IMG/VR virus record: IMGVR_UViG_3300045988_047309
Span: 1-64,000 of that record
DNA from: a virus
Length of the DNA: 64,000 nt
Reading direction: 5' to 3' (one strand)
In this document: positions 1,939 through 32,328 of the stretch, piece by piece
Layout: each line of letters begins with the position of its first letter
Numbering within the stretch: position 1 is the first letter of the stretch
The notes under the pieces: generated by a model
Database searches by the model: none
Told to the model about the DNA's origin: nothing
What the model saw: only the letters and a program-made list of their open reading frames with translations
Position numbers and translations under genes: made by a program

Positions 1939-1981
1939 TTAATAGATAAGATTGCTATTATATAAGGTGTGATTATCTTTG
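1939..1981 (+). promoter_or_regulatory. late-type promoter with a degenerate upstream box
   Basis: TTAATAGATAA (1939-1949), exactly 24 nt, then TATCTTTG (1974-1981). The ATG at 2012 follows. Confidence 0.5.
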
Positions 1982-3804: not shown

Positions 3805-6800
3805 ATGCCAATAAATAGTAAGGTTAAGAGACTGTATGATGCCTTGAAGGCTGATGGTGGTGATGTTGGTACACCAGAAGAATTTAACTCTTGGTTCTTT
3901 AAGCCTGGCAAGGAAGGTTACAAAAACAGAAAATCCGTATATGATACCTTCAAGGCTGATGGGGCTGATGTAGGGAAAAACTATGAGGAGTTCGGTAAAT
4001 GGCTTGGCCTTCATGCTGTTTATCCTACCGTAAACAAGTATCACCAGCAGATGCTGAACTCTGTTGACCCAAACAAGAGCAGGGCATCTGAACTTACTCA
4101 TAGAGCGGTTAGTCAGGCAAAAAGAGGAATGAATAATGTCCGTAAGCCTGTCCGTGGTGCTGTAGTCAACAAGCAAGGTAAAAAGGTGAGTGAATTTGAT
4201 ATTACTCCTGCCAAGACCGTAGAAGACCTTGATAGAGAGTATGCTCAGGAGACAACAAAGAACTGGGAGAATGAACTGCATGATCAGATGGCTGATGCCG
4301 ACAAGGATGCAGCAAAGATTAGCGATATGTTCAAGTCCTTCATCGGTTCTATGGATGAGGTCGGTAGCGTGTGGGGTAATATGACAAGAGGTGGCGGTAT
4401 TGCAGGTACTCCTCATAGTGTTACTACCAACAATGGTCTCATGAAGAATACTGAAGCTCGCCAACTTCTTATTGCTGGTGACTACAATCGTAAGAGAAGA
4501 GAACTCTTACAGTTGGAGCAGGATTCAAGAAATGGTGCTTTCTTTGACAATCATTCTTTTTTTAGAGGAATGTATGATGCTGCCAAAGACACTGGTTTCC
4601 TGACAGGTGGGGCTTTTAACCTTATCAGTGGTTTCACCATGCTTAAAACCAAGCAGGACTTGGATAATGGTGTCCATACGAAAGCTGGAGATATGCTGAT
4701 GCAGCAAGCGGTAAAGAATAGTAATGCACAGAGTCAGTATGGTGACAATCAGGGATGGATGTACACTGGTGGTGTTATCACTACCAATATGGCTCCTTTT
4801 ATAGTGCAGATTGCCAGTGCAGGATTCTCCAAGGGTTTGAGTACTTCAATCGGCAAGGTTGTGCAGGGCGCAGCTTCCAAGGTGGCACTGGGTACAATGA
4901 AAAAGGCGGCAGGATTTGCAAGTGCAGATTTGGCTAAGAACATCGGTAAGGTAACTGGTCTTACTACCAAGGCTTTCGGCAAGGCTATCCAGTATGGAAT
5001 CGTGGGTGCAGCCCAAGCTAATACAGTTGGTCTTGGAAATGTTGCTAACGATGTGATTAACCGCTATACGGGTCAGGTCTATCAGGATGAGCAGGGTAAC
5101 TACAAGTTCGGCACATTTGATAGTGATGGTAAACTTGTGCATGAAGGCGGTGAAGACTTCCTTACTGCCTTCGTAAAGGGTGATGCGGCTCAGACCATTG
5201 AGTTTGCTACTGAGTTGGCTGGCGGTGGCATTGATGCTGTGGGTACTGCCCTGAAGAACTTCGTTACCAAAGGTGGCAAGAAAATTATCAACAAGTACAA
5301 CATGGAGAATGTCTCCAAGGTGATAGACTTCTTGCTTAATAATAAAGTGTCAAAGAATGTAAGATATTTGAAGGCTGGTGCTGACAGAACACTTGGTAAG
5401 GTTGAAGTGAATAGTATTGTCGGTGAGTCTCTGGAGGAAGAGTTGGGTATCATCGCCAATACGGTCTTTACTGGTGATAACAAAATCTCAGACTTGTGGG
5501 ATGAAAAGCAGCAGTCACAGATATGGGGCGGTATGCTCTTGTCTATCGGATTGATGAAGGGTGTTGTTGCTCCTTTCCATGCTTATAATGCCAAGCAGTA
5601 TTATTCCTATAAGCATAAGCTAAACAAGGCTGATGTGAACTTGTCTCAGTTGCTCGGTAAAGAGAAGTGGGAAGAACTCCGTAATCAGATTGATGCTACA
5701 ACAAACGAGGATATGCCTGAAATGGTAAACAGAATCAATCGTGATGTTGCTCTTGGTAAGAACAGACAGCCAGTGCGTGAGTATATTCAGAACTTGCTCA
5801 TCATGCGTGGTTATGACATTGGTAATATGCTTGCAGCAAAGAAGGCAGTTGAAGATAAGGGTGAAGGTGTCTCCGTGAAGAATATGGAGAAGAATCAGGC
5901 ATATCAGCAGGGTCGTGATGCTTACGGCTATGATACACATGAGATTCAGTTAGACCAAGAAGACAAACAAAAGTCTCTTGCTCAACTTCTCGGTATATCA
6001 GAGCAGCAGTTGGCATCCATGAGTGATGAGGAGCTTGAATCATTCTCTGGTCGTGATGATAATATTGATAGGGCTATTTATGACTACCAGTTGTCGAGTG
6101 CTCGCTATGAAGGTGTTGTTGATAACGCAAGAGACCAGATAGACTTGGAGGTTCAGAGAGCAGCACAGGCGGTTGATATGTACACAGACAAGTCTCGTAA
6201 TACTATCCGAAACGCTACCATCAAAGCATCAGGCGGCTTGGAAGACTATGGCGTGTATATTATCAGCGGTAATATTGCTACTCATGATGATGGCTCCATT
6301 GATGTAAGCAATAGCGATGATATGATTCTGTATTATGACCCAACTACCAATACTGTTGAGCACGCTGATGCCATGATGTTTGCTGAACTGGGTAGTGAGG
6401 AGAATGCTGATGAAGTGAGAAGTCAGGCTATGGCTGATGCCAAGGAGAAGGCTATCAAAGAAACTACTGGTATCATTGATGGTGTTGTTGAGGTAGGTAC
6501 TCAGTTCAAGACCGTTGGTGCAGATGGAACAGAACATACTTATGAAGTACTCGCTGATAATGGTGATGGTACTGCCATGATTACTATTGATGGCAACATT
6601 CCAACAGAACTTGTCAAGGGTGAGAATGTAAATATTCCAGTCTCGTTTGAAGAGTTGCAGAAGATGAAGGATGAGTCTGACCAGCAGAGATTGCAAGCGG
6701 CAAAGGCTCAGCGTGAACAGGTGGAGAAGGAGCGTGCTGAGCAACAGATGCAAGCACAGACTACACAAGCAGAGAATCCAACTCAGGAAGATAATATCCA

Positions 6801-9800
6801 GTCAACACCTATCGAAGATAACATAGACTACTCTGATATAATCAGAGAGGATGGTAAGGTTCAGATGGTAGATGTTTCTGATAAGGATGGAAATAATCTG
6901 TTCCCTGATGCTAAAGATGTTTTCTATATCCAAGGAAACAAGATGAGAACCAAGTTTGTTTATATTGATGCAAATGGAGAGTTGAAGACTCAGAGTTTCC
7001 CTACTGGATTGGTTAAGATAAAGACAAGGGGTGAAGTATCTGTTGATGATTACAAGAAGTATCGCAATACGTTACTCTCTGCTGAATCTTCTGCCATACC
7101 TGAATCCTCAATGATAGAGGATAATAGTGGCACAATAGAGGCTAATAGAGGTGGAATAGAGGTTGAAGATAACACTCAGCCTTTATCGGAAGCTGATGCT
7201 GACAATGTAATCGCCCAGATGGAATCAAGTGCAGAGACCGCTCCTGATTTGGAACTTACACCAGACAACTGGACAGCAGAGTTTGGTGAAGATGGAATCT
7301 TGTCTACTCCTATAGGTGATGTGAAGATGGGAGAGAATCAGGTGGCTAAGTTGTTTGAGAAAGGTCGTTCCAAGGAGTTTGGTATGATTAAGCCAACGCT
7401 TACGAATCCTGATGTGATAATCGAGGTTCCTTCTCATTCTGCTGATGGCAATGAGGAGCGTTCATCATCTTATCTGTTTATCAAGACTTTCTTGGGTAAG
7501 AATGGCAAAAAGGTGTACTATTTCAAGTCTGTAACCATCAAGAAGGATGGTCTTGAAATCAGCATTAGCAGTAACTATGACAGAGCAAAGAGAGTAAAGG
7601 AGGCATTAATGAAAGGGAAGTTGCTATATCGTAAGAACGATGGCGCACAGACCGAGCAGAACCAGCCTTCTACTTCTGTGGCAACTTCCCAAGAGGATGC
7701 TGCTGGCTCTTCTGAAAGCAAATTTACAAACATTTCTGCAAACGACAATGAAAATAATGAAAGTTTAACATTTGAAGATGGTACTCCTATCCCAGTTGAT
7801 GAGAGTGGTGAGACTGACCTTAGTCAGACTGATGCTGCTCATGCTGCTGAGTGGTATGACAATAACCTCGGTGAGGATGCAGATGATTGGCTGGATGGAG
7901 AAATCAAGAAGGCTAAGAAAGTATTGGAGCAAGCAAAGAATAAGAAGTTGGCTGGCACTAAACCTTCTGAGTTGGTTGCAAGCAAGAAGGAGAAGGAAGC
8001 TGCAATAGCTGATGCCCAAGCACATTATGACTCTGCAATCTCTATCCGTGATTCGTTGAAGGAAAGAAGAATTGCCAAGGAAGAGAATACTGCTGAGGGC
8101 AGAAAGAGTCTCATTGAGAAGGCAAGAAGAAAGTTCACTCGATTGAAGAACAGCGAAGAATGGAGTGAGCGGACTGGTGACTTGTGGAATGAGACGGTTG
8201 GCAAGTTGCTACATCGTCTGTATGATGCTACAGGAATTGATGTTTTCGATGATACTCCTAATACTGTCTATGAGTATGTTGCTGAAAATGTCGGTCCGTA
8301 TAGCTTGAATTATGAAGGCAACGATAATTCGAAGGGAGTACAGCAGGAGACAGGTTTGTCTCGTTCTGACTTCGCCAAGTTAGGATGGCTCGCTGCCGAA
8401 GGCAAGGGTATGACTATTGATGCCAAAGTACACAGACTTTGGGAGAATAGGCCATCCAACTTGGAGAGTGCGGACACGCAGGAGATAAGAAACGCCTTGA
8501 TCAGTCTTATTACAAGCGGTCAGACCGCATTCCAGGCGAGAGATTATATCCTGAATCAGCGTATCGAACTTGCAGAGAGTGCGCTGGAGGAGCAACTGAG
8601 ACAGGAAGAAGATGCGGCCGAAGCTCAGAAGGCTAAGGAGGAGGAAGAAAAGAAAAAGGCTGAGCTGGAGAAGAAAGCAGAGGAGGAGAAGACGAATGAG
8701 AACAGAAATACTCCTGAACTTTCCCATGAACAACAAAAAGCTATGGAAGAGGGCGAGAAATTAGGTTTTCCTGCTGTTGACAAGGAAGGCGAACCTATCA
8801 ATCAGAATGTCATAGAACTTGCTAACTGGGCAAAGGAACAAGGCTTAGAGATAGACCCTACATCTAAGTCGAATAGCTACGCTGATTTGTACGTGATGTG
8901 TAAGGAAGGCTTCGGTGTCAGTACGTTGGTTCCTGATGTTGGCGAGGATATTAATCAGGTATTCTATTTCCCTGACAACGTACAAGGTGAGCAATTAGCT
9001 AAACTGCAAGAGGAATTTAATGTAGGTCGTGACCTTAAACACTCTGCTGATATGAATAGCGAACTAACAGAAGGTGTTATGTTCTATGATGGAGATACAG
9101 CGAGAGAGTTCAGAGATTTTGTTAATGAGAAGGTAAATGAGGAGAGCAAGACTATTGAAGTTCCTGAGGATGCAACGGATGATGCTCCTTTGGGTGAGCA
9201 ACTTGATGAATCCGACCTTCCTTTCTCTGCTAAGGATAACGGCCAACAACAGACAACATCTGAGCGTGCTGCTGACGTAGAGAAGAACAAGGTGGATGAT
9301 ATGAAGGTCGTTGACAACATCGTGGGGCAGAAGACTCGCAAGGCTTTCGATAGGTTAGCTAAGATGATGGGTGCCAACATTCAGTGGCAGTACTCAGACA
9401 AGTTGGGTAACGGCTGGATTCAGGAGACTACGGATGCCGATGGCAACGTGCATCGTACTATCTTCATCACTCTTGACTCTTCTATCACGGAAGGTGCTCA
9501 GTTTATCTTCGGCCACGAAATGACTCACCAAATCAAGAACCTGAACCCTGCTGCATACGATGAGTTGACTCAGCTTGTTCTTGATACCTATGGCTCTGAT
9601 GCCTTCGACAAGGCGGTAGATGAGACCATGCAGAGATATTCTGATGCAGGATTCTCTGGACGTGATAGAGATTACTATGCTGAGGAGGTTGTTGCTGATG
9701 CGGTAGGCGAAATGATTCGTGACCTCAACTTGGCTCACACTCTCGCTATGAAGATGTCTCATCCTCTGCTCGCTGCTATACATGAGATATTGCAGAAGAT

Positions 9801-12800: not shown

Positions 12801-15800
12801 ACCGAAGAAGATTCAGCATAAGTTTAGTGATGACGTATATAACGAGTTGAAGTCTATTACTGCTGGAGACTTCAATATCTATGGTATCGGAAAGGCTGAT
12901 GCCCAGAAAGTATTGGGTATGTACATTGATGCCAAGTTTGATGGCGATAAGGATTTGTATGAGGAGAAGACCAAGGCTTGGTTGGAAAGAAACAAGTCTA
13001 TCGTTGATGCTGGTAATAAGGGTGGAATGAGATATACCATTGCCAAAGAGAATGTTGAACTATACGATGAATATGGTTTCAACTATAAGAGTGTGCAGAC
13101 TTTCGTCCGTGATGTAGAGTATGACCATCGCAAGACAGGTGTTGACATGAATGCCACGCTTAATGATGTTGAAGACTACATTAAGACCAATAACCTGACG
13201 GATGAATTCAATACTTGGCTGGAAGGTAAAGAAAAGGAGTATGGTATTAAGGAGGTAATCTTTGATGGCTTCACTCCAAGCGGCAATCGTAGATATGTAC
13301 CAAACACCTTGGAGAATGTTTCCAAGATAATGAAGAAACAAGGCAGAAATGGTGCAACTGGAATATCGGTATCTTTCCAAAACTTCGCTGCAAGTTTGAT
13401 GCCTTCTTATGGAACATTGAAGGATATTCGCTCCAAGAAAGGCTTGTTGACTTCTGATCATGAGGATTTAGATAAGTTCAACGAAAAGTGGTCTAAAGTA
13501 TTCTTTGAACTTGGCATGAAGTGCCAGCCTGATGCAACTGGAACTTTTGATGATTATGGTTTGGCAAGGCTCTCTGAGGCGGCAAAGACAAGTGATCCAC
13601 AAGCCTATTTGAAGAAGGAGTACAATGTGGACTTCTCAGATGGGGATACGAAACGTTTGAAGGAAATGGTTAAGGCTATCAAGGAAGAGTCCCCAGCCAT
13701 GTACTTTGAAACAAAGTTTGAACGTCCTGTTGGCTTTAACGAGTTCTCTTCTGCTGTGGTCCCAACAACGGCAAGTGACGAGGTTAAGCAGGCTTTGCAG
13801 AATGCTGGTGTTCAGATTTACGAGTACGATAAGGAGAAGGAAGGAGACCGCAGTCGTGCCTTCAATGAAGCTATCAACGGTAGTGACAATATTCGTTTCT
13901 CTCTGAAATCAATGATGGAGAAACCTGAGGGATGGAAACAAGCCAACAAGAAGGCTATACATATTGCAGAAGCTATAGAGCGTGACCCTAAGTTCTCCTT
14001 GAAGAACCTTGATGGCACTCTCATTAAGGCAGGAACCTATTTCAGTGGTGGTGGTCTTGTTGAGGAAGGCTTGAAGGGTATCATCGACCCAGTGGTGGCA
14101 GTGGAGTATGACGAGAAGATAAGCGGTGTATATCGCAATAACTTCGGGCAGCACATCGTTACTGCTGATGTTCGTGATGTTGACCCTAAGGAGTTGGTGA
14201 AGCAGATAGATGGCGAGGTGGAGTACTTCCATGCCAGCCCAGTCTGCAAGAACTACTCTCAGGCGAAGAGTAACCATGCAGAGGTGGAACTTGACAAGGA
14301 GACTGCTGCAAGTACTGCCGAGTTTATCAATGCTATTAAGCCAAAGGTGGTGACCATTGAAAACGTGAAGGGATATAAGGATTCGGAAGCGATGAAGATT
14401 ATCACGGATGCCCTGGATGCCAACGGTTATACTTGGGATGCAGATGTGTATAATGCTGCTGACTATGGCGGCTACACCAACCGAGAGAGGTTGATTGTCC
14501 GTGCGGTTCGTGATGGTAAACTCCCTGAAAAGCCAAAGAAGATGGCACACAAGAGCGGATGGTATGAAGCTGTGGCTGATATTATCCCGACCCTGACCGA
14601 GAAGAAGAATGGTGTGGCTCCTTGGATGGATATTCGCTTGAAGGCTGATGGTATTGACTGGAGAAACATTGACAAGCCATTGTATGTGATGGGTAGTGCT
14701 TATGCTGATGGCAAGATTCCTCATGCTTTTGCTGACGAACTCCTGCCAACACTCAGAACCAAGAGTGGTGATGTGATTGTTATGCCTGATGGCAAGGTAT
14801 ATCGTGCTATGGGCAGAGTGCTCGCAAGAGTATCAGGAGTGAGCGATGATTACAAGATGCCATTCTCCGAGAACCTGAGCCATACCATCATCGGTAATGG
14901 AATACCTACCCAGTTGACGGAACATGTGATTGCTCCTCTTTTGCAGAACACCTTGCGCCCAACTACTCCTGATGATGGTAATACCAAGTTCTCTCTCCGT
15001 GGCTCCACACCTTACGACAAGCAGATGGAAGAGTGGATGGAGAAGAACCATTTAGAAAAGGGTGCTGTTCCTATGGAAAAACCTGTCATGAAGGAAGGTG
15101 AGAACATTTTTGATTATGCCAACAGAATGGTAGAGTGGACTCGCAATCAGAACTTGTGGAAGACCGCTCCTAAGCAGACTGGATTCCAAGATGCACTCGA
15201 CAAGTGGAAGGCTGACAATGGTCTTTCTCCTGATGCTTATCCACCTGTCCGTCCTCATCGTGAAAACTATTCAACAGAAATCGGTTATACAGAAGACTTG
15301 GAGGAGTACAACAAGAAGAAAGAACTCTGGAAGTCTGCTCCAAAGCCAAAGGACTTTGATTTGTCCGTTGACTTGGAGGATATGAACAAGCAGCTTCGTA
15401 ATATCAGAAGAGCGGTTCTGAATCAGAAGAACTATGACCAGAGAACGGTTAAGGCGGTATCTGACCTTGTAAGAAAGATGCTCAACATTGGATGGGGTGA
15501 CGGATTGAGCAGGGGTAAGGTAGGCAACCTTCTCTCTGCTGCCAAGAATGCCACTGGAGCCAATGACGTGAAGAAGTATCTCGACAAGGCTATGGGAATC
15601 CTTGCTGAAAACTATCTCAACCGTCTCTCTACTGCCTACGACAACCTTATCAATACCAGGGGTGCAAGGGCAGACCAGAGCGGTGTGATTAAGATGGGTT
15701 CTCTTGATGCCAAGGGTCAGGCTTTCATGAGCGAGTATAAGAAGGCTATCAATATGGATGATAGCTCTCTGAATACCTATATAGCAAACATTGAGGAAGA

Positions 15801-18800
15801 TTCTGCCAAGAATGAAGATAATGTGGAAATGAATGACTACAGACTGGCTGGTATTCAAGCTGCCATCATGTATAAGCAGCAGATTGGCGGCAATGATGCC
15901 GATATTTCCGAGTTGAAGAGACAGATTGGTGAGTTGAAGAATAAGAAGGATGCTACCAAGGAAGACAAGGATTTGTTGAAGTCCTTGGAAAAGAAACTCT
16001 TTGAGAATAAGTTTGACCGCATCACCATGTACGAGAATCTTCTGAATAATATTCAGAGAATGGTGAAGGAGAGTAAGGGTAGGGCAAAGGAGTTCCGAGA
16101 GGAGATTACTGAGCACAAGAATGAAATCCTGCATCGTGCCAACTTGGATTTGGAAGGTGTGGATTCTGCCTATTATGATACCACAACTGCCAAGAAGAAG
16201 TTTGTGAATAATCCTATTCTCCGTTTCGTCATGTCTTCAACATACACATTTGAGCAGTTCTTGAAGTTCTTTGGCAGACATCATGCAAATGGTGAAGGCT
16301 ATCTCTACAACTACTTTATGTCTGAATGGCAGGATGCAGCAGACGAACAGCAGTTGTATAATGAAATGAACCGCAATGCCCTTGATGAGAAGACCAAGGA
16401 GTTGTTCGGCAAGAAGAACTTCACAAAACTGGTAGGTATTGATGGCAAGGGTATGAAGGAAATGGACGTTGAGGTTACTGACTACTCCAACAAGGAGACT
16501 GGTAAGCGAACCATCCATCTGAAACAAGGTCAGATGCTCTATATCTATCTGGTCAATAAGGAGACTGATGGAGAAATGAAACTCCGTGCTATGGGTATCA
16601 CAGAGGAAAAAGTGGCTGAAATCGAGGAAAATCTTGACCCAAGAGTGAAGGCTATTGGTGAGTGGTTGCAGGATGAATATCTTCCTGAATGTCAGAGAAG
16701 ATACCAAGCTACCCATACCAAGTACTTCGGTGCTCCTATGAAGGAGGTGGAGAACTATTTCCCTCTTGCCATCAATAACCGGGCAAGAAATATCAGGGAA
16801 GATTTGAATCAAGATACTGATGCAATAAGTCGATTGGCTGGTACTTCTACTGGTGCTATTATTACACGAAGGGTGAACGTAATTCCTCTTGATATAGAGA
16901 ATGCCGATGCTTTTGCGGTTGCCTTCAACCATCTGGATGAAATGGAAGAGTGGTCTGCTTACTTGCCATTTATACAAGATGTCAACACCTTACTCTCTTC
17001 TACTCATTTCAGAAATCAGGTAATGAACATGTCTTCTGCTGCCTACGGAAGTGGTAAAACCTTATGGGAGGAGTTTAAGAAAGTGGCTCAGATTGCTGCT
17101 GGAACATACAAGCCAAAGGTTGACAATGGTATGATGGATAGCAAGATTGCTGCTGTTGTCGGTGGTATTGCTACCGCAAAGATTTCAGGTCGTTTGTGGA
17201 CTGCCTTTAAACAAACTCAGTCTGCAACCACGTTCCTTACTGAATGTGACCCAGCTAGATTCTTGTGGTATGGTGTTAACCCATACGGCTCATGGCATTG
17301 GGCTTATGATAACCTTCCATTGTTCCGTAAGCGTGTAGAGCAGTTGACTGCTGGTGATGTAAAGGTAAGACAATTCTTGGATGAGTTAGAGAAATACCAT
17401 GACTGGACAAAGACTATTGCAAAGGTTGGTATGTCTCCTAATATACTTGTTGACTCTGTAACTTGTGCGGTTGGTGCTCGTTCCGTTTATGAGACTGAAT
17501 TGAATAAACTGACCAAGTTGGGCTATTCAAAAGATAAGGCAGAGGAGAAGGCTATACAAAAGGCATCGCTTTCATACAATAAGACTCAGCAATCGTCTGA
17601 GGGTGCTTTCTTATCTCCAATGCAGGTTGATAGAACATACGTATCTGCTGCTTTGTCGCTCTATAAAAATGCTAACTATGCTTATGGTAGAAAGAAGATT
17701 GAAGCAATTAGAGGTATAGCCAAGACGTATAGATTCTGGGGTGAACATAAAAATGCCATGATTGGTTCAATGACAAGACAGATTATGGATGAGGATGGTC
17801 TTGATGAAAATGTTGCTAATGCTATCGCAAAAAGAGCATATACAAGAACATTTTGGTATAATATAGGTACGCTCCTGAATTACATGACTATCGTTCCGAT
17901 TTCTTGGGCTGCATACAAGGTGCTTCTATATCTCCTGAATGGTGATGATGATGACAAGAAAAAGAAGATGATTGAGGAAGCGTGCTTAAAAGGATTTGCT
18001 ACCACAACATTTGATGATTATGTGATTCCGTTTGCTTCAAATGTCCTGAATGCAGGATTGAACATAGAAGATGGCAAGATAGGTTTTGATACTGATGTTT
18101 TCAAGTATCAGAATTTATATATCAACCCAGCTACATCTGACTTGTCGAATATCTATTCTATGATAGGTAATCAGAAATGGTGGTCTGCTGGCAACAAATT
18201 CGGTATGCTTGGCATTCAGATGCTCGTAGGATTCAATCCTGAGACCATAGGAGCACTCTATCAGGCTTACGATGAGTTTGATAAGGATAGCGGTAATATG
18301 CCATTGGAGATTAAACTTGCCGTATTGAAGTCTATAAGTGCCCCTGAGGAGAGTATAAGAGGTCTCTATATGGATGAACTCGGTCTTGATAATGAGGATA
18401 GAACCAAGGTTCCATTGTCGGTACTGGAGCAGAGATATGCCGAGAGACAGATTAATCGTGACAACCTTCTGTCTCAGATTGCCATGCCGAAGGAAACTTT
18501 TGATGGCTATGTTGAAAAGTACAAAAAGTCTTTCGAGAAGAAGATTCAGGATAAGATGGATAAGATGGATGCTTACGACCAGAGGAAGTTTGATGCTATC
18601 TTTGATACTACTACAGACCCTGCATTGAAGGGTATGATGGAAAAGAAACGTACCAAGGATGCCAATGCTGCTGCTGACGAGCAGATAGCAAAGGAAGGTC
18701 TGAATCAAGAGAAGAAGGGTAAGGAGCCTAGCGAAGAAGCTTACGATGCAGTAAAGATGTCTATTGATGTGGCGGAAGATAATGCTATCAGTACCTACAA

Positions 18801-19065
18801 TAAGGTGCTCAACAAGCGATACGCTGCCCTGAATGATGAGTACAACAATCAGACAGATGCAATGAAGTACATCTTTATGAGTAAGCATCCAAACTTCAAG
18901 GCATACAAGGATTTGGAATCTGAATATACCACGTATGGCAAGAAGATGAAGGAGTTGAAGGAAAAACTGGTTTCTGCTGACGGATATGATGCCAAGCAGA
19001 CAATCCTGAAACAGATACGTGCCGAAAGAGAGAAGTTCAGTGAACTGCAATCCAAGGTAAGATAA
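3805..19065 (+). CDS. giant polyvalent protein (5,086 aa)
   Basis: Single uninterrupted ORF. Contains an HEMTH zincin motif, a DGDHLD pyrophosphatase-like motif and C5-MTase motifs I/IV/VI/VIII/X. A recurrent KFSL[KR] linker separates the modules. The C-terminal ~1,350 aa carry a hydrophobic helix. Confidence 0.9.
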   Translation: MPINSKVKRLYDALKADGGDVGTPEEFNSWFFKPGKEGYKNRKSVYDTFKADGADVGKNYEEFGKWLGLHAVYPTVNKYHQQMLNSVDPNKSRASELTHRAVSQAKRGMNNVRKPVRGAVVNKQGKKVSEFDITPAKTVEDLDREYAQETTKNWENELHDQMADADKDAAKISDMFKSFIGSMDEVGSVWGNMTRGGGIAGTPHSVTTNNGLMKNTEARQLLIAGDYNRKRRELLQLEQDSRNGAFFDNHSFFRGMYDAAKDTGFLTGGAFNLISGFTMLKTKQDLDNGVHTKAGDMLMQQAVKNSNAQSQYGDNQGWMYTGGVITTNMAPFIVQIASAGFSKGLSTSIGKVVQGAASKVALGTMKKAAGFASADLAKNIGKVTGLTTKAFGKAIQYGIVGAAQANTVGLGNVANDVINRYTGQVYQDEQGNYKFGTFDSDGKLVHEGGEDFLTAFVKGDAAQTIEFATELAGGGIDAVGTALKNFVTKGGKKIINKYNMENVSKVIDFLLNNKVSKNVRYLKAGADRTLGKVEVNSIVGESLEEELGIIANTVFTGDNKISDLWDEKQQSQIWGGMLLSIGLMKGVVAPFHAYNAKQYYSYKHKLNKADVNLSQLLGKEKWEELRNQIDATTNEDMPEMVNRINRDVALGKNRQPVREYIQNLLIMRGYDIGNMLAAKKAVEDKGEGVSVKNMEKNQAYQQGRDAYGYDTHEIQLDQEDKQKSLAQLLGISEQQLASMSDEELESFSGRDDNIDRAIYDYQLSSARYEGVVDNARDQIDLEVQRAAQAVDMYTDKSRNTIRNATIKASGGLEDYGVYIISGNIATHDDGSIDVSNSDDMILYYDPTTNTVEHADAMMFAELGSEENADEVRSQAMADAKEKAIKETTGIIDGVVEVGTQFKTVGADGTEHTYEVLADNGDGTAMITIDGNIPTELVKGENVNIPVSFEELQKMKDESDQQRLQAAKAQREQVEKERAEQQMQAQTTQAENPTQEDNIQSTPIEDNIDYSDIIREDGKVQMVDVSDKDGNNLFPDAKDVFYIQGNKMRTKFVYIDANGELKTQSFPTGLVKIKTRGEVSVDDYKKYRNTLLSAESSAIPESSMIEDNSGTIEANRGGIEVEDNTQPLSEADADNVIAQMESSAETAPDLELTPDNWTAEFGEDGILSTPIGDVKMGENQVAKLFEKGRSKEFGMIKPTLTNPDVIIEVPSHSADGNEERSSSYLFIKTFLGKNGKKVYYFKSVTIKKDGLEISISSNYDRAKRVKEALMKGKLLYRKNDGAQTEQNQPSTSVATSQEDAAGSSESKFTNISANDNENNESLTFEDGTPIPVDESGETDLSQTDAAHAAEWYDNNLGEDADDWLDGEIKKAKKVLEQAKNKKLAGTKPSELVASKKEKEAAIADAQAHYDSAISIRDSLKERRIAKEENTAEGRKSLIEKARRKFTRLKNSEEWSERTGDLWNETVGKLLHRLYDATGIDVFDDTPNTVYEYVAENVGPYSLNYEGNDNSKGVQQETGLSRSDFAKLGWLAAEGKGMTIDAKVHRLWENRPSNLESADTQEIRNALISLITSGQTAFQARDYILNQRIELAESALEEQLRQEEDAAEAQKAKEEEEKKKAELEKKAEEEKTNENRNTPELSHEQQKAMEEGEKLGFPAVDKEGEPINQNVIELANWAKEQGLEIDPTSKSNSYADLYVMCKEGFGVSTLVPDVGEDINQVFYFPDNVQGEQLAKLQEEFNVGRDLKHSADMNSELTEGVMFYDGDTAREFRDFVNEKVNEESKTIEVPEDATDDAPLGEQLDESDLPFSAKDNGQQQTTSERAADVEKNKVDDMKVVDNIVGQKTRKAFDRLAKMMGANIQWQYSDKLGNGWIQETTDADGNVHRTIFITLDSSITEGAQFIFGHEMTHQIKNLNPAAYDELTQLVLDTYGSDAFDKAVDETMQRYSDAGFSGRDRDYYAEEVVADAVGEMIRDLNLAHTLAMKMSHPLLAAIHEILQKIKLAFYGTEYSDATKNIIRSIEQAYVKTAKGLVENSDTGEDVSFSLRQKPEPKKKGVGYKVFVLKDGKLYPPMVANPDGAATPVGVWLDADAAPIAGESKTGRPQVKQGGKGTQGGSGKLAYRPGWHLGVVPYAIQFNRKDAEGNKTLFPKNFVFAEVEYAADVDYQDEARQEGINPSGKYQHSLAGLKHLPTDGYYMYRTNPNPETDPWVITGAMKVNRILTRAEQADLVIKAGREPQQIQEGDIVTDDVVNSINQEIADAPKFSLKVYHGSGADFTEFDFDHMGEGAGSQVFGWGGYVTSSKKIGKSYANLVDANAPYQDVEYVGNNAHEYTDIVAGLFNGGQRDYDDVKEFLQNGYNSDKDNARKKQMLEWFESTKPSDWKSVNDGKRNLYEVDIPDDNGSNYLDWENPLNEEQINAIRDALAKNGVDVSSWENRGFKLDLPFKDVYAAVLPMMMRCEPKEVSKFLSSLGFTGIKYPAGTIQGGAEEGDTNYVIFKPEDMKITQHTKFSLRLKAAIEETETNPSDAQKESGNYKKGHIKFGGYDYTIENPKGSTRSGKDADGKEWKITMHDTYGYIRGKFGKDGDHLDMFINDKADLDNWNGDVFVVDQVNPDGSFDEHKVMYGYDSMDDAEKAYLANYSDGWQGLGNITGASKDEFDKWLDTSNRKLKPFADYAKVKFSHAQSVSKPRYSLKDIKPIGVGAFGNIYNQFRGKSKAAIEFLKKLGSGEATAALHHHTIGDISLVWGDKKAGLDKILRKHPEVVDNLQSIIDSMEVVQESDNRVKLESPTHFAVVSKEYKGEPREQWLLTAYEKRESLENDKSMDTATSSLGGDTALSQSKGSAAKIDNSSETAKENGEKFSLKDEKTLAGVHNITEEKLRKAIKQGGLANPSVAVIDSSKQNHEDYGDISLILPSEKVAKRTGKNAGTWQGDAWTPTYPQVERQMSNNGAAKASKDVSSVPGDMYNEVRRGLDRWLDGGEGNSAMAYIFLHEKGVAPEPKKIQHKFSDDVYNELKSITAGDFNIYGIGKADAQKVLGMYIDAKFDGDKDLYEEKTKAWLERNKSIVDAGNKGGMRYTIAKENVELYDEYGFNYKSVQTFVRDVEYDHRKTGVDMNATLNDVEDYIKTNNLTDEFNTWLEGKEKEYGIKEVIFDGFTPSGNRRYVPNTLENVSKIMKKQGRNGATGISVSFQNFAASLMPSYGTLKDIRSKKGLLTSDHEDLDKFNEKWSKVFFELGMKCQPDATGTFDDYGLARLSEAAKTSDPQAYLKKEYNVDFSDGDTKRLKEMVKAIKEESPAMYFETKFERPVGFNEFSSAVVPTTASDEVKQALQNAGVQIYEYDKEKEGDRSRAFNEAINGSDNIRFSLKSMMEKPEGWKQANKKAIHIAEAIERDPKFSLKNLDGTLIKAGTYFSGGGLVEEGLKGIIDPVVAVEYDEKISGVYRNNFGQHIVTADVRDVDPKELVKQIDGEVEYFHASPVCKNYSQAKSNHAEVELDKETAASTAEFINAIKPKVVTIENVKGYKDSEAMKIITDALDANGYTWDADVYNAADYGGYTNRERLIVRAVRDGKLPEKPKKMAHKSGWYEAVADIIPTLTEKKNGVAPWMDIRLKADGIDWRNIDKPLYVMGSAYADGKIPHAFADELLPTLRTKSGDVIVMPDGKVYRAMGRVLARVSGVSDDYKMPFSENLSHTIIGNGIPTQLTEHVIAPLLQNTLRPTTPDDGNTKFSLRGSTPYDKQMEEWMEKNHLEKGAVPMEKPVMKEGENIFDYANRMVEWTRNQNLWKTAPKQTGFQDALDKWKADNGLSPDAYPPVRPHRENYSTEIGYTEDLEEYNKKKELWKSAPKPKDFDLSVDLEDMNKQLRNIRRAVLNQKNYDQRTVKAVSDLVRKMLNIGWGDGLSRGKVGNLLSAAKNATGANDVKKYLDKAMGILAENYLNRLSTAYDNLINTRGARADQSGVIKMGSLDAKGQAFMSEYKKAINMDDSSLNTYIANIEEDSAKNEDNVEMNDYRLAGIQAAIMYKQQIGGNDADISELKRQIGELKNKKDATKEDKDLLKSLEKKLFENKFDRITMYENLLNNIQRMVKESKGRAKEFREEITEHKNEILHRANLDLEGVDSAYYDTTTAKKKFVNNPILRFVMSSTYTFEQFLKFFGRHHANGEGYLYNYFMSEWQDAADEQQLYNEMNRNALDEKTKELFGKKNFTKLVGIDGKGMKEMDVEVTDYSNKETGKRTIHLKQGQMLYIYLVNKETDGEMKLRAMGITEEKVAEIEENLDPRVKAIGEWLQDEYLPECQRRYQATHTKYFGAPMKEVENYFPLAINNRARNIREDLNQDTDAISRLAGTSTGAIITRRVNVIPLDIENADAFAVAFNHLDEMEEWSAYLPFIQDVNTLLSSTHFRNQVMNMSSAAYGSGKTLWEEFKKVAQIAAGTYKPKVDNGMMDSKIAAVVGGIATAKISGRLWTAFKQTQSATTFLTECDPARFLWYGVNPYGSWHWAYDNLPLFRKRVEQLTAGDVKVRQFLDELEKYHDWTKTIAKVGMSPNILVDSVTCAVGARSVYETELNKLTKLGYSKDKAEEKAIQKASLSYNKTQQSSEGAFLSPMQVDRTYVSAALSLYKNANYAYGRKKIEAIRGIAKTYRFWGEHKNAMIGSMTRQIMDEDGLDENVANAIAKRAYTRTFWYNIGTLLNYMTIVPISWAAYKVLLYLLNGDDDDKKKKMIEEACLKGFATTTFDDYVIPFASNVLNAGLNIEDGKIGFDTDVFKYQNLYINPATSDLSNIYSMIGNQKWWSAGNKFGMLGIQMLVGFNPETIGALYQAYDEFDKDSGNMPLEIKLAVLKSISAPEESIRGLYMDELGLDNEDRTKVPLSVLEQRYAERQINRDNLLSQIAMPKETFDGYVEKYKKSFEKKIQDKMDKMDAYDQRKFDAIFDTTTDPALKGMMEKKRTKDANAAADEQIAKEGLNQEKKGKEPSEEAYDAVKMSIDVAEDNAISTYNKVLNKRYAALNDEYNNQTDAMKYIFMSKHPNFKAYKDLESEYTTYGKKMKELKEKLVSADGYDAKQTILKQIRAEREKFSELQSKVR
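9235..9927 (+). other. zincin-like metallopeptidase module of the giant protein
   Basis: FIFGHEMTHQ (HEMTH at 9514-9528) with downstream EEVVADAVGE. Bounded by PFSAK and SFSLR linkers. Confidence 0.7.
11341..11874 (+). other. inorganic-pyrophosphatase-like module of the giant protein
   Basis: YTIENPKGS...YGYIRGKFGKDGDHLDMFI...DEHKVMYGY. DGDHLD (11554-11571) fits the PPase D-x-D-x-x-D signature apart from His at position 4. Confidence 0.6.
11887..12384 (+). other. small module, tentatively a Barnase/EndoU/RelE-like nuclease domain as found in polyvalent proteins
   Basis: GDISLVWGDKKAGLDKILRKHPEV...FAVVSKEY...WLLTAYEK pattern. This is recollection of the family only and needs a profile search. 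Confidence 0.3.
14005..14988 (+). other. DNA (cytosine-5) methyltransferase module of the giant protein
   Basis: YFSGGG (motif I, 14038-14055), HASPVCKNYS (motif IV, Cys codon at 14245), TIENVKG (VI), TNRERLIV (VIII), IGNGIP (X). Confidence 0.8.
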
Positions 19066-19075: not shown

Positions 19076-19107
19076 GGGAGTAAGCGCAATGCCTACTCCC
19101 TTTTTTT
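19076..19107. terminator. bidirectional intrinsic terminator
   Basis: Stem 19076-19085 / 19091-19100 with one mismatch. A-run upstream and T7 (19101-19107) downstream. Sits between the giant ORF stop and the end of the minus-strand ORF. Confidence 0.75.
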
Positions 19108-24793: not shown

Positions 24794-25312
24794 CTACACA
24801 CTCATCTCAAGCATCTTCGGGTAGCCTTTCTTGTAATCGTAAGCCTCTACCTCCTCAATGGTTGTCAGCTCACTTACAACCGCCTTGTGGCTTGCCGTAA
24901 CGTTAAAGCACTCCAGGGCGTACATCTCAAGCACTGAGAGCAACTGAATAGCCTTGTCACAATCCACCACCAGTTTGATGCCTTTAAGCCACAGAGTTGT
25001 CGTTTGCTGTCCTGCCGCCTTGGCGATAGTGGTGGAGTTCATCAATCCCACACGAGTCGCCTTGTCAAGCCAAACAAGTAGTCCGTTCAGTATAAAGCCG
25101 TTCACCGATGATGAGGTATCGTAGGCTGTAATTTCAGCTATCTTCTCGACCTTTGCCTGTTCAAGCTTCTCTGACTCCGTAGGTACAGGCTCTTGATATT
25201 CCTTGTAGCCTGCCTGTCGCAGCATATCCTCTGTTGGGTTACACACCACGCATCCGTTTAACTCTATGGTGTCGGATGCAAAGACACCATTCTTAATCCA
25301 TTTCTTTGTCAT
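24794..25312 (-). CDS. DUF4376-like tail-fibre-associated protein
   Basis: EKIAEITAYDTSSSVNGF...WLDKATRVGL...LEMYALECFNVT...EEVEAYDYKKGYP matches the pattern I recall for DUF4376. Confidence 0.6.
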   Translation of the reverse strand: MTKKWIKNGVFASDTIELNGCVVCNPTEDMLRQAGYKEYQEPVPTESEKLEQAKVEKIAEITAYDTSSSVNGFILNGLLVWLDKATRVGLMNSTTIAKAAGQQTTTLWLKGIKLVVDCDKAIQLLSVLEMYALECFNVTASHKAVVSELTTIEEVEAYDYKKGYPKMLEMSV

Positions 25313-27368: not shown

Positions 27369-27385
27369 ATTTATAGCTATTTAAA

Positions 27386-27925: not shown

Positions 27926-27926
27926 A

Positions 27927-28901: not shown

Positions 28902-28925
28902 ATACGTATATTATTAATATATAAG

Positions 28926-28968
28926 CAAAGATAGGCAGAATTCAATCTACCTATCTCTTATCCGTTAA
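28926..28968 (-). promoter_or_regulatory. late-type promoter TTAACGGATAA-N24-TATCTTTG (minus strand)
   Basis: The plus strand shows CAAAGATA at 28926-33 and TTATCCGTTAA at 28958-68, with an exact 24-nt gap. Confidence 0.6.
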
Positions 28969-28973
28969 CCTTA

Positions 28974-32317: not shown

Positions 32318-32328
32318 CGTATATGATG

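Follow-up and report, generated by a model that had tools for sequence, protein, structure and literature searches.

By the evidence of its sequence, the open reading frame (ORF) at positions 3805-19065 (+ strand) of the analysed stretch of viral DNA, a window of 64 kb, encodes a phage-type polyvalent protein of a gut Bacteroidales phage. It starts with ATG, continues for 5,086 codons without a stop and occupies 23.8% of the window, which bears out the single uninterrupted ORF described in an earlier, sequence-only reading of this DNA; the predicted product of 5,086 aa has a mass of 569 kDa and a pI of 5.2. Three zones can be distinguished, namely an N-terminal chassis, a central effector string and an all-alpha C-terminal chassis, and the central string comprises, in this order, a PBECR2 RNase, an unnamed module, a gluzincin, the cassette c2, an ART-like cassette, an InPase, PBECR1, PBECR5 and a C5 DNA methyltransferase (C5-MTase). 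Close relatives carry shuffled cassettes. The protein is a further case of an already known class, and what is added here is the hypothesis that it is processed at FSL[K/R] junctions.

Six Pfam families exceed their gathering thresholds in this ORF: PBECR2, ART-PolyVal, InPase, PBECR1, PBECR5 and C5 DNA methylase. Five of the six were defined on polyvalent proteins (Iyer et al. 2017), and the earlier assignment to the polyvalent class in the sense of these authors is confirmed by the six matches. According to Pfam, the polypeptide thus combines at least two unrelated effector or enzymatic domains, and it includes InPase (177 bits) and PBECR2 (37.7 bits), both of phage-only distribution (Iyer et al. 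2017, J Bacteriol 199:e00245-17). Its gene lies in a phage genome near virion and morphogenesis genes, since the window holds genes for TerL, portal, an SU10-type capsid protein and endolysin; a tape-measure or sheath protein was not matched among the ORFs scanned in the window.

Conserved modules at both ends

Residues 1 to about 1030 (3805-6894, + strand) constitute the N-terminal chassis, a helical region defined by a homologue profile that matches aa 5-1033 and finds BKO1-TP3 gp55 at E 1e-248 and BS-TP4 gp3 at E 5e-234. Most of the first 1,800 residues had been regarded as candidate effectors, but much of this stretch is this conserved N-terminal module. It contains a Gly/Ala-rich amphipathic stretch (aa 250-600), the most hydrophobic segment of the giant protein (aa 573-591) and a weak LPD14-like match at aa 469-606 (Pfam, 22.7 bits versus a threshold of 27). 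No sequence relative was found in the PDB, and the AlphaFold2 model is of low confidence (pLDDT 47), too poor for a fold search.

The C-terminal chassis (aa 3729-5086, 1,358 aa; 14989-19062, + strand) is all-alpha and has 149 relatives in IMG/VR. It ends a giant ORF in IMG/VR loci with enough upstream DNA, most of these ORFs exceeding 4,200 aa and overrunning the edge of the locus, and it is present in 52 genomes or MAGs, nearly all of them labelled Bacteroidales. Its AlphaFold2 model is wholly helical (pLDDT 60.7, pTM 0.53) and has no PDB match, by fold or by sequence. Forty-two matches at E <=1e-3 were obtained from BFVD. Most are to the second or third fragment of a long viral protein, two of them carry the annotation 'Structural protein' and come from flavobacterial phages, and the best ejection-like match, 'Protein inside capsid D', reaches E 0.01 with a TM-score of 0.15. 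The module features a conserved hydrophobic helix (aa 4683-4711), a DDDDKKKK cluster and a charged helical tail. The helix, already noticed in the sequence-only reading, is indeed present at 17851-17937, but as the second most hydrophobic 19-mer of the protein (Kyte-Doolittle 1.38) it falls short of the usual transmembrane cut-off of about 1.6, as do the hydrophobic segments of the protein in general. For the coiled-coil tail proposed alongside it, the charged composition of aa 4875-4974 and predicted helices are in agreement, with nothing further in its favour. Both ends of the protein, the initial ~1030 residues as well as the final 1,358, are conserved 'chassis' modules and not effectors.

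The effector string

The first effector is a predicted RNase domain, PBECR2 (aa 1160-1276; 7282-7632, + strand; PF18810, 37.7 bits versus 27.1, E 2.6e-9). It is followed by a nameless conserved module (aa ~1312-1640; 7738-8724, + strand) common to other giant proteins: a representative search matched P0048, P0049, P0053, P0054 and P0073 (query positions 3-336 in the best stretch; the identity, taken over every matched stretch, is 37-55%), and no Pfam family was matched at E up to 1. PBECR2, like the PBECR1 domain at aa 2734-2816, does not appear in the module list of the sequence-only reading. Every motif which that reading quotes can be read in the sequence at the position it gives.

Three stretches had been listed as nameless candidate domains, and only that at 9940-10590 stands as such. 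It corresponds to cassette c2 (aa 2042-2262; 9928-10590, + strand; phrog_30118, PHROG E 5e-33). A representative search with c2, zincin and ART modules as query returned 6,782 matches at E <=1e-3, and the best 150 of these 6,782 are dominated by c2, with 37-95% identity and mostly within proteins of 2,000-7,500 aa. Mean column identity of c2 is 73% among 13 diverse members, none of which has a Pfam match, and no significant PDB match was found; a stand-alone homologue of 171 aa is located on the Selenomonas plasmid pSRC3. By these comparisons c2 is a widespread, highly conserved domain outside Pfam, found in thousands of giant proteins yet without assigned family, structure or function.

The second of the three stretches, 10603-11328, is nameable after all: it belongs to cassette c0 (aa 2263-2508; 10591-11328, + strand), an ART-PolyVal-like putative ADP-ribosyltransferase that matches PF18760 with 39.8 bits versus a threshold of 31.2, the alignment covering only the N-terminal model positions 7-51 of 140. 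A variable insert interrupts the remainder of the ART domain, and the cassette ranges from 185 to 370 aa in relatives.

A likeness to inorganic pyrophosphatase had been suspected and is substantiated by the next cassette, InPase (aa 2509-2690; 11329-11874, + strand), predicted to be a type-I inorganic-pyrophosphatase-like OB-fold (PF18823, 177.6 bits, E 1.4e-52, model positions 1-134 of 135). In addition to this profile membership, the acidic metal-binding residues are found in the motif DGDHLD...DEHK, read from the sequence (YGYIRGKFGKDGDHLDMFI at 11524-11580 and DEHKVMYGY at 11656-11682). An InPase domain also ends the portal protein gp19 of phage Pa193 (sequence of PDB 9b41_L, E 3e-25), where it lies outside the built model, which covers residues 94-528; fusions of InPase to portal proteins have been described (Iyer et al. 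2017).

PBECR1 (aa 2691-2860; 11875-12384, + strand; PF18809, 47 bits, E 3.9e-12) opens with YSLK and is a separate, FSLK-initiated cassette (c21) in relative L015. Cassette c3 (aa 2861-3364; 12385-13896, + strand) includes the third stretch, 12397-13896, in which no motif had been named; it opens with the N-terminal part of PBECR5 (PF18814, 76.5 bits, model positions 12-103 of 239), continues with about 400 unassigned residues, and is 47% identical to BF1-TP2 gp68 aa 1733-2260. The mini-cassette c10 of 32 aa (13897-13992, + strand) stands ahead of the MTase cassette in most relatives having c10.

The last cassette, c4 (aa 3397-3728; 13993-14988, + strand), is a predicted C5 cytosine DNA methyltransferase, as had been read from its motifs FSGGG (14041), SPVCKNYS (14236), ENV (14359), TNRER (14476) and GNGIP (14893). 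PF00145 is matched with 101 bits versus a threshold of 22, TIGR00675 with 70 bits, under its cut-off of 100.65, and the catalytic motifs align to M.HhaI over motifs IV, VI (ENV), VIII (RxR) and X (GN), so that motifs I, IV, VI, VIII and X of the class are found together with profile membership. In motif IV, SPVCKNYS, one residue separates Pro and Cys, and HMMER sets the Cys one column from HhaI C81. Further domains occur in the cassettes of relatives: MuF_C, LPD13, LPD23, LPD3 and full-length ART-PolyVal.

Zincin, junctions and the question of processing

The putative gluzincin-type metallopeptidase domain (aa 1840-2041; 9322-9927, + strand) contains HEMTH at 9514-9528 (aa 1904-1908) and EEVVADAVGE at 9682-9711 (EEVVAD, aa 1960-1965). 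In an alignment of 14 sequences down to 21% identity only H1904, E1905, H1908, E1961 and A1964 are invariant. The proposed zincin signature is thus upheld for HExxH and the downstream Glu, but no curated family accompanies it: Pfam and NCBIfam gave no match, and with the segment of the window itself as query nothing in Pfam attained E 1, PF18818 (MPTase-PolyVal) included. Metallopeptidase matches are weak, namely DUF6782, a putative metallopeptidase, in four of the 14 members (best E 0.006), Peptidase_M13 in one of the 14 (E 0.004), and in the PDB MJ1213 (E 0.15) and endothelin-converting enzyme 1 (E 0.83). The zincin-like MPTase is a common, not obligatory, hub domain in phage-type polyvalent proteins (Iyer et al. 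2017).

Eight junctions of the form [KRS][FY]SL[KR] (9928-14997, + strand; codons starting at 9928, 10591, 11329, 11875, 12385, 13897, 13993 and 14989) are confined to module borders between aa 2042 and 3729, the first directly following the zincin. FSL occurs seven times in the giant protein versus 0.68 expected, a ten-fold excess, and always as [KRS]FSL[KR] at a module border; at aa 2691 the remaining junction reads YSLK. The tetrapeptide is preceded by a basic residue and by linkers of low complexity that are acidic or polar. The motif is kept as a peptide, with 35 different 12-mer DNA spellings among 21 relatives. When these 21 are split at the motif, 31 segment clusters result, roughly two dozen being internal cassettes, and most of the 21 relatives have a cassette order or content of their own. 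The window and relative L008 form a mosaic, and three of its recombination breakpoints, 11333, 12385 and 13984, lie at or no more than 10 nt from the junctions at 11329, 12385 and 13993.

Motif and zincin occur together. All 20 chassis-sharing giants with this zincin family have at least four motifs (observed 6-11), and all 47 without it have at most two. Motif density is 1.46 per 1,000 aa in zincin-positive versus 0.23 in zincin-negative proteins (113 representatives at 50% identity; Mann-Whitney p 1e-11), a co-occurrence that is phylogenetically confounded, with few motifs in the most distant zincin homologues. Our hypothesis is that the zincin of the protein itself cleaves at the [KR][FY]SL[KR] junctions. 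Thermolysin-type gluzincins favour a bulky hydrophobic residue at P1', and the zincin would cut before the aromatic residue of the junctions, freeing each cassette as a separate effector.

In its most far-reaching form, which we consider possible but less likely than not, this hypothesis makes the protein a self-processing 'polyprotein' in which the gluzincin cuts [KR]|[FY]SL[KR] and frees at least eight effectors from a reusable N- and C-terminal delivery chassis, c2 being a new and very widespread effector fold. Cutting would happen in the capsid or after injection, and the released c2, with its extremely conserved surface, would possibly be aimed at a core host machine. A shared cleavage tag would make the cassettes freely exchangeable and would therefore account for the differing arrays in closely related gut phages.

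Alternatively, the protein might be packaged and injected but act as one uncleaved chain, with [FY]SL[KR] as a permissive domain-boundary mark, for instance a short strand, a helix cap or folding punctuation; we consider this possible, though somewhat unlikely. The motif would then be retained because recombinants breaking elsewhere are non-functional, and breakpoints at the motif are predicted equally well. Distant c2 homologues also begin with [FY][SR][ILV]R, and the Pfam alignments of PBECR5 and ART-PolyVal begin only a few residues past the junction, so the motif could be partly an N-terminal domain element. There is also a precedent: according to Iyer et al. (2017) and PMC13434306, the N4 vRNAP, which has an MPTase domain, enters the capsid without processing and functions as a set of loosely linked domains. 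Against an uncleaved chain, the same tetrapeptide heads at least eight unrelated folds as well as the C-terminal chassis, and linkers and a basic residue stand before it. The motif is moreover nearly absent from related giants without this zincin family, and a purely structural boundary element is not expected to track one protease family. Cultured relatives have giant proteins without zincin or motif, and processing is therefore not essential to the class. If the junctions are uncut, what remains is simply a large and well-annotated representative of an established class.

According to a prediction made in 2017, polyvalent proteins are toolkits of several effectors that enter the host by injection and that an embedded metallopeptidase may cut into units (Iyer et al. 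2017). Their cut sites and processing have so far been undefined, and a term search of that paper found no instance of the word 'linker' and, among the passages returned, no junction motif. In the present family the processing hypothesis becomes directly testable, since a short junction peptide in strictly fixed positions is combined with a candidate protease on the same polypeptide and with naturally shuffled variants from gut metagenomes. The family also serves as a natural inventory of the anti-defence modules that can be exchanged among the abundant phages of Bacteroidales.

Gene context and delivery

The giant ORF is the third of three adjacent, co-oriented genes (2012-2653, 2657-3793 and 3805-19065) separated by gaps of 3 and 11 nt. 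The first (2012-2653, + strand) encodes a basic protein of 213 aa (pI 9.6), a candidate T7 gp14-like ejection protein (outer-membrane channel). It matches Pfam T7_gp14 (PF24072) over its full length (1-178 of the 213-aa ORF versus 1-179 of 187 model positions) but weakly, since the 20.7 bits (E 4e-4) fall short of the gathering threshold of 27; two of its three homologues match the same family (best E 6e-5). Its N-terminus is hydrophobic and made of small residues (N-terminal 19-mer, Kyte-Doolittle 1.73); a PDB search with a small profile of this protein found no relative. The second gene (2657-3793, + strand) encodes a basic protein of 378 aa without a match in Pfam, PHROG or NCBIfam, which by its position could be a periplasmic-tunnel analogue. 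Both small ORFs had been described as Gln-rich, and they contain 9.9% (213 aa) and 8.7% (378 aa) Gln.

A Bacteroidetes-type -7 promoter box, TATCTTTG, was read from the sequence at 1974-1981 (+ strand), 31 nt 5' of the operon's first ORF; a canonical TTTG -33 element was sought at 17-23 nt spacing from it and none was found. The octamer has 17 copies in the window versus 3.9 expected, and because it is enriched over the whole window nothing marks 1974-1981 as 'late-type'; the promoter class assigned to it earlier has no basis. Eleven nucleotides past the stop codon, a GC-rich hairpin with flanking T-runs on both strands (19076-19100) is likely a bidirectional terminator closing the operon.

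The same small, medium and giant layout is found in the cultured Bacteroides phages BS-TP4, BKO1-TP3 and BF1-TP2. Homologues of the 213-aa ORF occupy the same position in BKO1-TP3 (51% identity), BF1-TP2 (34%) and BS-TP4, and BKO1-TP3 gp56 and BS-TP4 gp2, both in equivalent position, are homologous to the 378-aa ORF. In complete genomes of isolated phages, uninterrupted homologues of 3,633, 5,391 and 5,553 aa take the position of the giant ORF. PMC12694917 does not include BS-TP4, BKO1-TP3 and BF1-TP2 among the phages with described morphology, and a term search of it found no passage on their giant genes.

Gene context and analogy suggest that the giant protein is probably packaged and injected; further links to the virion are the occurrence of InPase on portal proteins and the annotation of two C-terminal chassis matches as 'Structural protein'. 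The reading that we favour, and hold to be rather probable, sees it as the third member of a three-gene ejection operon in a Bacteroidales phage with an SU10-type capsid, packaged, injected and, by hypothesis, cleaved by its zincin at the junctions. By analogy with T7 gp14/15/16, N4 gp52/51/50 and phi24B gp47, the capsid would contain a few copies, which would leave it before the DNA or together with it. Contact with the envelope channel would be made by the N-terminal chassis, and the effectors of the central string would arrive in the cytoplasm and weaken host defences there through methylation of DNA, cleavage of RNA, ADP-ribosylation and hydrolysis of pyrophosphate or nucleotides.

It is improbable, in our view, that the protein is instead a multi-enzyme made in the infected cell and never packaged, which would methylate progeny DNA and counter defences from within, its place beside morphogenesis genes being incidental. 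The portal gene of the window (36032-38068) is not adjacent to the giant ORF but 17 kb away, and a DNA methyltransferase that modifies progeny DNA would have its use in the cell that makes the phage. However, the triad, including its T7-gp14-like small protein, is conserved and directly adjoins the portal gene in BS-TP4 and BKO1-TP3, the polyvalent protein of phi24B was found in virions (bioRxiv 10.64898/2026.04.10.717836), and a single chain of 569 kDa is hard to justify for purely intracellular enzymes. That the giant ORF is an artefact, either a chimera of the assembly or several genes fused by sequencing errors, is hardly credible: most database homologues do end at contig ends and assemblies often break within the gene, an effect of cassette polymorphism between co-occurring strains, but the isolated phages have uninterrupted homologues, in dozens of IMG/VR contigs the ORF extends for more than 3,300 aa ahead of the C-terminal chassis, and the chance of 5,086 stop-free codons, from base composition, is about 1e-148.

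Comparison with known systems

The triad resembles T7 gp14/gp15/gp16 and the N4 ejection cassette in its three co-oriented genes for a small, a mid-sized and a giant multi-domain member. In N4 these are gp52 (150 aa), gp51 (644 aa) and the vRNAP gp50 (~3,500 aa), which is ejected with gp51 and gp52 (PMC13434306) and, in the classification of Iyer et al. (2017), is itself polyvalent with an MPTase domain. The small member in T7 and N4 is membrane-active, and that of the window shows the weak T7_gp14 similarity. The window has the gene order of T7, from small to giant, whereas N4 has the giant first. Unlike in N4, no RNA polymerase domain was found in the window protein. Neither chassis is detectably similar in sequence to gp15, gp16 or gp50, and the C-terminal chassis shows no fold similarity either; a relationship of the giant to gp16 or vRNAP was not found in the PDB (C-terminal fold and sequence, N-terminal sequence).

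Virion proteomics revealed gp47 (2,811 aa; LPD5, LPD1, LPD38, MuF-C) in the podovirus Stx phage phi24B, and a role in ejection has been proposed for it (bioRxiv 10.64898/2026.04.10.717836). The likeness is one of description, that of a large polyvalent protein proposed to be encapsidated and ejected; the domain set is different, and gp47 has little more than half the length of the window protein.

BS-TP4 gp3, BKO1-TP3 gp55 and BF1-TP2 gp68 hold the same slot after homologous small and medium ORFs. The N-terminal chassis is common to BS-TP4 and BKO1-TP3 and InPase to all three, and BF1-TP2 has the PBECR5 module; all three proteins are without this zincin and without the C-terminal chassis, and have one FSL[KR] each. 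BKO1-TP3 gp55 is annotated 'DarB-like antirestriction'. DarB of phage P1 is a large head-associated anti-restriction protein with a DNA methyltransferase. We reject the window protein as its orthologue: the 'DarB-like' match to phrog_10089 extends over no more than the InPase segment (profile positions 875-1039 of 4,647), and neither the N6-adenine MTase nor the helicase domain of DarB was found by Pfam in the window protein.

With the polyvalent proteins of Iyer et al. (2017) the window protein shares many unrelated enzymatic domains per chain, the Pfam domains that define the class (PBECR1/2/5, ART-PolyVal, InPase and a weak LPD14), a candidate zincin with HExxH and Glu, and a DNA methyltransferase; its gene, like theirs, lies in the context of phage morphogenesis. 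The zincin and c2 of the window fall outside the Pfam models derived from that work. The window protein has about 10-12 modules, near the top of the reported 2-15 domains, and its two chassis flank an exchangeable cassette array with a fixed junction tetrapeptide.

Genome context and gene organization

The window is a tailed-phage genome in which 23.8% of the sequence belongs to one gene. The single uninterrupted ORF described in the sequence-only reading at 3805-19065 (+) was recovered: it comprises 5,086 codons (569 kDa, pI 5.2), and the chance of a stop-free run of this length is about 1e-148, judged from base composition. All motifs quoted in that reading were located in place, and the two small Gln-rich ORFs that it had placed upstream exist as well: ORF213 (2012-2653, 213 aa) and ORF378 (2657-3793, 378 aa), both basic and moderately rich in Gln (9.9% and 8.7%, respectively). 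The gaps within this small/medium/giant triad are only 3 and 11 nt, and a GC-rich hairpin (19076-19100), flanked on each side by T-runs, lies 11 nt past the stop of the giant ORF; short gaps and hairpin together suggest that the three ORFs form one operon. A late-type promoter had been proposed at 1939-1981. The octamer TATCTTTG at 1974-1981 fits the Bacteroidetes -7 consensus TAnnTTTG and is a plausible promoter box, but the label 'late' has to be dropped, since the octamer is enriched four-fold throughout the window (17 copies versus 3.9 expected; sites include 307, 1974, 20848, 28926-, 32329-, 38414, 38962 and 52687-) and carries no mark of late expression. Several copies sit directly 5' of ORF starts. 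Two copies lie within the giant ORF on the same strand (12029 and 18597) and might drive internal transcripts.

The remainder of the window encodes a large terminase (29305-31449, -), an SU10-type major capsid protein (33327-34868), a portal (36032-38068), an endolysin (39264-39812), two tail-fibre-like proteins (24794-25312 and 25947-27368, both -), a RecE-like exonuclease (57591-58508, -) and an Ant/Rha-like regulator (60620-61462, -). Three successive paralogous ORFs of 152, 196 and 184 aa, all matching phrog_19255 or phrog_35482, are found 3' of the endolysin (40240-41772, +). The ORF that leaves the window end (62810-64000, +) bears a retropepsin-like aspartyl protease domain (PF13975, E 2e-15) and a weak, sub-threshold TPR match. 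GC content falls to 0.335 in 62001-64000 and to 0.371 in 1-2000, and 62810-64000 and 1-2000 could represent prophage host flanks or accessory genes. No integrase was found among the window ORFs scanned; BKO1-TP3 and BF1-TP2 possess one.

A near-identity DNA search of GenBank phages with the giant ORF gave no match. By portal protein the closest cultured relatives are BS-TP4 (65% identity), BKO1-TP3 (65%) and BF1-TP2 (46%), three Bacteroides temperate phages (PMC12694917); a term search of that paper returned no passage on the triad genes. The triad is conserved in all three, with small and medium proteins homologous to ORF213 and ORF378 and giant proteins of 5,391 aa (BS-TP4), 5,553 aa (BKO1-TP3) and 3,633 aa (BF1-TP2). 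In GenBank these genes are annotated as 'hypothetical protein', with BKO1-TP3 gp55 as 'DarB-like antirestriction'. The giant-gene lineage is one of Bacteroidales phages, and its cultured members are already present in GenBank.

The portal gene directly follows the giant gene in BS-TP4 and BKO1-TP3. We compared 35372-38068 of the window with BS-TP4 26961-37477 and BKO1-TP3 29213-38713: past the homologue of 35372-36028 both phages have a further giant gene, which encodes about 2,640 aa and is reported to be a DGR target, and after it a reverse transcriptase, and in the window this slot is occupied by the portal gene. The portal has therefore been relocated from beside the polyvalent gene to a distance of 17 kb. 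No reverse transcriptase was found among the window ORFs scanned.

Domain composition of the giant protein

Profile searches assigned PBECR2 (aa 1160-1276, 37.7 bits), ART-PolyVal (aa 2263-2508, 39.8 bits against a threshold of 31.2, with only model positions 7-51 of 140 aligned), InPase (aa 2526-2662, 177.6 bits), PBECR1 (aa 2734-2816, 47 bits), PBECR5 (aa 2865-2957, 76.5 bits) and a C5 DNA methylase (aa 3413-3710, 101 bits), besides a weak LPD14 match (aa 469-606, 22.7 bits, under the threshold of 27). The PBECR1/2/5, ART-PolyVal and InPase domains are those that define the polyvalent-protein class; class membership is consequently firm, and the giant protein is almost certainly, judged from its sequence, the phage polyvalent protein that had been proposed.

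The InPase domain retains the acidic pattern DGDHLD...DEHK and also forms the C-terminus of the Pseudomonas phage Pa193 portal protein (PDB 9b41 sequence, E 3e-25), where it falls outside the built model (residues 94-528); portal fusions of InPase were already noted by Iyer et al. 2017. The methylase alignment to M.HhaI spans motif IV, ENV, RxR and GN. Its motif IV, SPVCKNYS, has one extra residue between Pro and Cys, and HMMER places the Cys one column off C81 of HhaI; the sole match in the NCBIfam scan was dcm, below threshold. A second, stand-alone C5-MTase-like ORF of 247 aa is located at 54275-55018 (-) and matches the N-terminal half of the phrog_116 profile (E 8e-55).

Three modules had been listed as lacking any nameable motif. 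The description stands for 9928-10590 (cassette c2), but 10603-11328 is ART-PolyVal-like and 12397-13896 opens with PBECR5. The only library match of c2 (aa 2042-2262) is phrog_30118, a PHROG of unknown function; none of 13 diverse members matched a Pfam family, NCBIfam likewise lacks it, and its profile found nothing significant in PDB. The best PDB match was ribosomal protein uL15 (E 0.14, non-significant), which the loop GGKGTQGGSG..RPGWHLG..P resembles, and we regard this resemblance as a lead rather than a result. Queried with aa 1310-2509, a set of 1.84 billion representatives gave 6,782 matches at E up to 1e-3, of which the best 150 cover mainly the 220-residue c2 segment (37-95% identity), mostly within proteins of 2,000-7,500 aa; mean column identity among diverse members is 73%. 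Relatives are nearly absent from phage and plasmid collections; a stand-alone homologue of 171 aa is encoded by Selenomonas plasmid pSRC3. By these sequence matches c2 is the most widespread piece of the giant protein, and no other segment is as strong a candidate for a new effector domain.

Two conserved chassis

Most of the first 1,800 aa had likewise been put forward as candidate effectors. This does not hold for the N-terminal part, which is a conserved chassis: a profile of its homologues matches BKO1-TP3 gp55 (E 1e-248) and BS-TP4 gp3 (E 5e-234) over residues 5-1033. The last 1,358 residues (aa 3729-5086) form a separate conserved module, the C-terminal chassis. Both ends of the giant protein are chassis and not effectors. 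The C-terminal chassis has 149 relatives in IMG/VR, where it ends a giant ORF in loci with sufficient upstream DNA, and most of these giant ORFs already exceed 4,200 aa where the locus ends and continue beyond it. It was also located in 52 genomes or MAGs. Almost all bear a Bacteroidales label (Muribaculaceae, Prevotella, Porphyromonadaceae, Bacteroides and Paludibacter among them), and a cultured Prevotellamassilia has one locus in its chromosome. We considered whether it is common to BS-TP4, BKO1-TP3 or BF1-TP2 and rejected this, as its profile has no match there. The hydrophobic helix noted earlier in the last ~1,350 aa is conserved, but its hydrophobicity is merely moderate (Kyte-Doolittle 1.38).

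Structural comparison was attempted for both ends. A PDB sequence search with the N-terminal half gave no match, and PDB searches with the two chassis profiles gave none below E 0.4. AlphaFold2 modelled the N-terminal chassis too poorly for a fold search (pLDDT 47, pTM 0.25); its model of the C-terminal chassis is, with moderate confidence, all-helical (pLDDT 60.7, pTM 0.53). The best Foldseek match of this model in PDB (E 0.34) is meaningless, and BFVD yielded 42 entries at E up to 1e-3, most of which represent the second or third piece of a long viral protein; among the 42, two are annotated 'Structural protein' (flavobacterial phages) and several are named ART-PolyVal, LPD or MuF_C.

Most database homologues of both chassis (protein representatives P0001-P0032, loci L002-L005) are cut at contig ends, with gene starts at contig positions 25-71. 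Metagenome assemblies appear to break systematically inside the giant gene, a pattern in keeping with cassette polymorphism between strains that occur together, and the family is consequently under-represented as full-length sequences.

Junction peptides and cassette exchange

The FSL junctions that had been noticed between modules are real: the protein contains seven FSL[KR] and one YSLK, versus 0.68 FSL expected. Each of the eight falls on a module border in the stretch aa 2042-3729; both chassis are free of them. Sampling of up to 3,333 residues upstream of the C-terminal chassis in 21 close relatives, in which this chassis is 72% identical or more, gave 6-11 motifs per giant ORF. Splitting at the motif yields 31 segment clusters, about two dozen of which are internal cassettes; their order and content vary across most of the 21 genomes, and those missing from the window bear MuF_C, LPD13, LPD23, LPD3 and a full-length ART-PolyVal. 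In the relative L008 the C-terminal chassis matches that of the window at 99% protein identity, yet the cassette array differs. Its DNA forms a mosaic with that of the window, in which blocks of 90-93% identity alternate with unalignable or far more diverged stretches, and three of the breakpoints (11333, 12385, 13984) fall at or within 10 nt of junctions (11329, 12385, 13993). Recombination has thus taken place at the junctions.

A junction acting as a DNA-level recombination site can be rejected: 35 distinct 12-mers encode the tetrapeptide, drawing Ser and Leu each from both of their codon families, so the peptide is what is constrained. Extended to its neighbouring residues, the motif has the consensus [DE][DN]x[KR][FY]S[LIV][RK] in 113 giant representatives, which were clustered at 50% identity. 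An equivalent repeated junction peptide was looked for in the distant clade and in the cultured phages, and none was found there.

The ART-like cassette c0 contains a hypervariable internal insert and ranges from 185 to 370 aa across loci L008-L028. In L025 it has shrunk to a 33-aa remnant (c27) joining the first and last strands (FSLKVYHGSGAEENNTNYVIFKPEDMRITEHTK), which suggests that cassettes decay as well as being exchanged.

The probable zincin and the junctions

The first junction of the window directly follows aa 1840-2041, a segment with HEMTH at aa 1904-1908. The window segment matched no Pfam model, none reaching E 1, and no NCBIfam model. Among 14 aligned homologues from the representative search, with identities as low as 21%, just five columns never vary: H1904, E1905, H1908, E1961 and A1964. 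Apart from a single Ala, they correspond to the HExxH and to the gluzincin helix that bears the third-ligand Glu. Weak matches agree in direction, pointing to a metallopeptidase: DUF6782 (putative metallopeptidase) in four of the 14, Peptidase_M13 in one, and, for the profile against PDB, MJ1213 (E 0.15), which we take to be the minimal gluzincin selecase, and endothelin-converting enzyme 1 (E 0.83). The top PDB matches, designed helical bundles, were dismissed as compositional because they match the helical tail. From motif conservation the segment is very probably a zincin, as yet unassigned to a curated family. Cassettes c17 and c20 in loci L016, L027 and L014 contain another HExxH segment (NLQHEVQHVIQHLEG...GEVEARN) adjoining an LPD23 domain, and these giant proteins would have two zincins each, as do about 8% of MPTase-bearing polyvalent proteins according to Iyer et al. 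2017.

Zincin and junction peptide go together: among 67 giant ORFs with either chassis, all 20 zincin-positive ones have at least four motifs and all 47 zincin-negative ones (BS-TP4, BKO1-TP3 and BF1-TP2 included) at most two. Across the 113 representatives the mean density is 1.46 motifs per 1,000 residues in zincin-positive versus 0.23 in zincin-negative proteins (Mann-Whitney p 1e-11). This pattern is the one expected from protease-site co-evolution, but it is confounded by shared ancestry, and motifs are scarce in the zincin homologues of greatest distance.

Thermolysin-type gluzincins cleave N-terminally to bulky hydrophobic residues, a preference that cleavage at K|FSL would match. In such a mechanism the zincin would cut the junctions and set free, each as an effector of its own, c2, ART, InPase, PBECR1, the PBECR5 module and the MTase. 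We propose cleavage at the junctions tentatively, as somewhat less likely than not; given cleavage, the zincin in cis would quite probably be the cutting enzyme. Autoproteolytic domain release by the MPTase was proposed by Iyer et al. 2017, who defined no sites.

Probable delivery and comparison with known systems

ORF213 matches Pfam T7_gp14 over its full length below threshold (E 4e-4), two of three homologues agree, and its profile has no match in PDB; it may be a T7-gp14-like outer-membrane channel protein. By analogy, the triad would be an ejection cassette similar to T7 gp14/15/16 or N4 gp52/51/50. In N4 the giant member is held in the capsid as beads on a string and enters the cell after the two smaller members (PMC13434306). 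A tape-measure role, which the Gly/Ala-rich helical N-terminus of the giant protein brought into consideration, appears less likely: a short-tailed phage agrees better with the arrangement of the operon, with its T7_gp14-like neighbour and with the failure to detect long-tail genes (no tape-measure or sheath match among the window ORFs scanned). On balance, the analogy favours a giant protein that is packaged and ejected. An ejected polyvalent protein is not a new idea, given the 2,811-aa polyvalent protein found in virions of podovirus phi24B and proposed as an ejection protein (bioRxiv 10.64898/2026.04.10.717836).

No relationship of gp16 or the N4 vRNAP to the giant protein was detected. 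Nor is the giant protein an orthologue of P1 DarB, since the 'DarB-like' PHROG match is confined to the InPase segment. The giant protein is a large member of the known phage polyvalent class. In the literature as far as searched, four features appear to be new: a constant peptide at the junctions, its occurrence together with a single zincin family, an architecture of two chassis whose intervening cassettes are exchanged among closely related phages, and the unnamed c2 domain. Our data thus describe a polyvalent-class member to which a testable mechanistic hypothesis, cleavage at the junctions, is attached.
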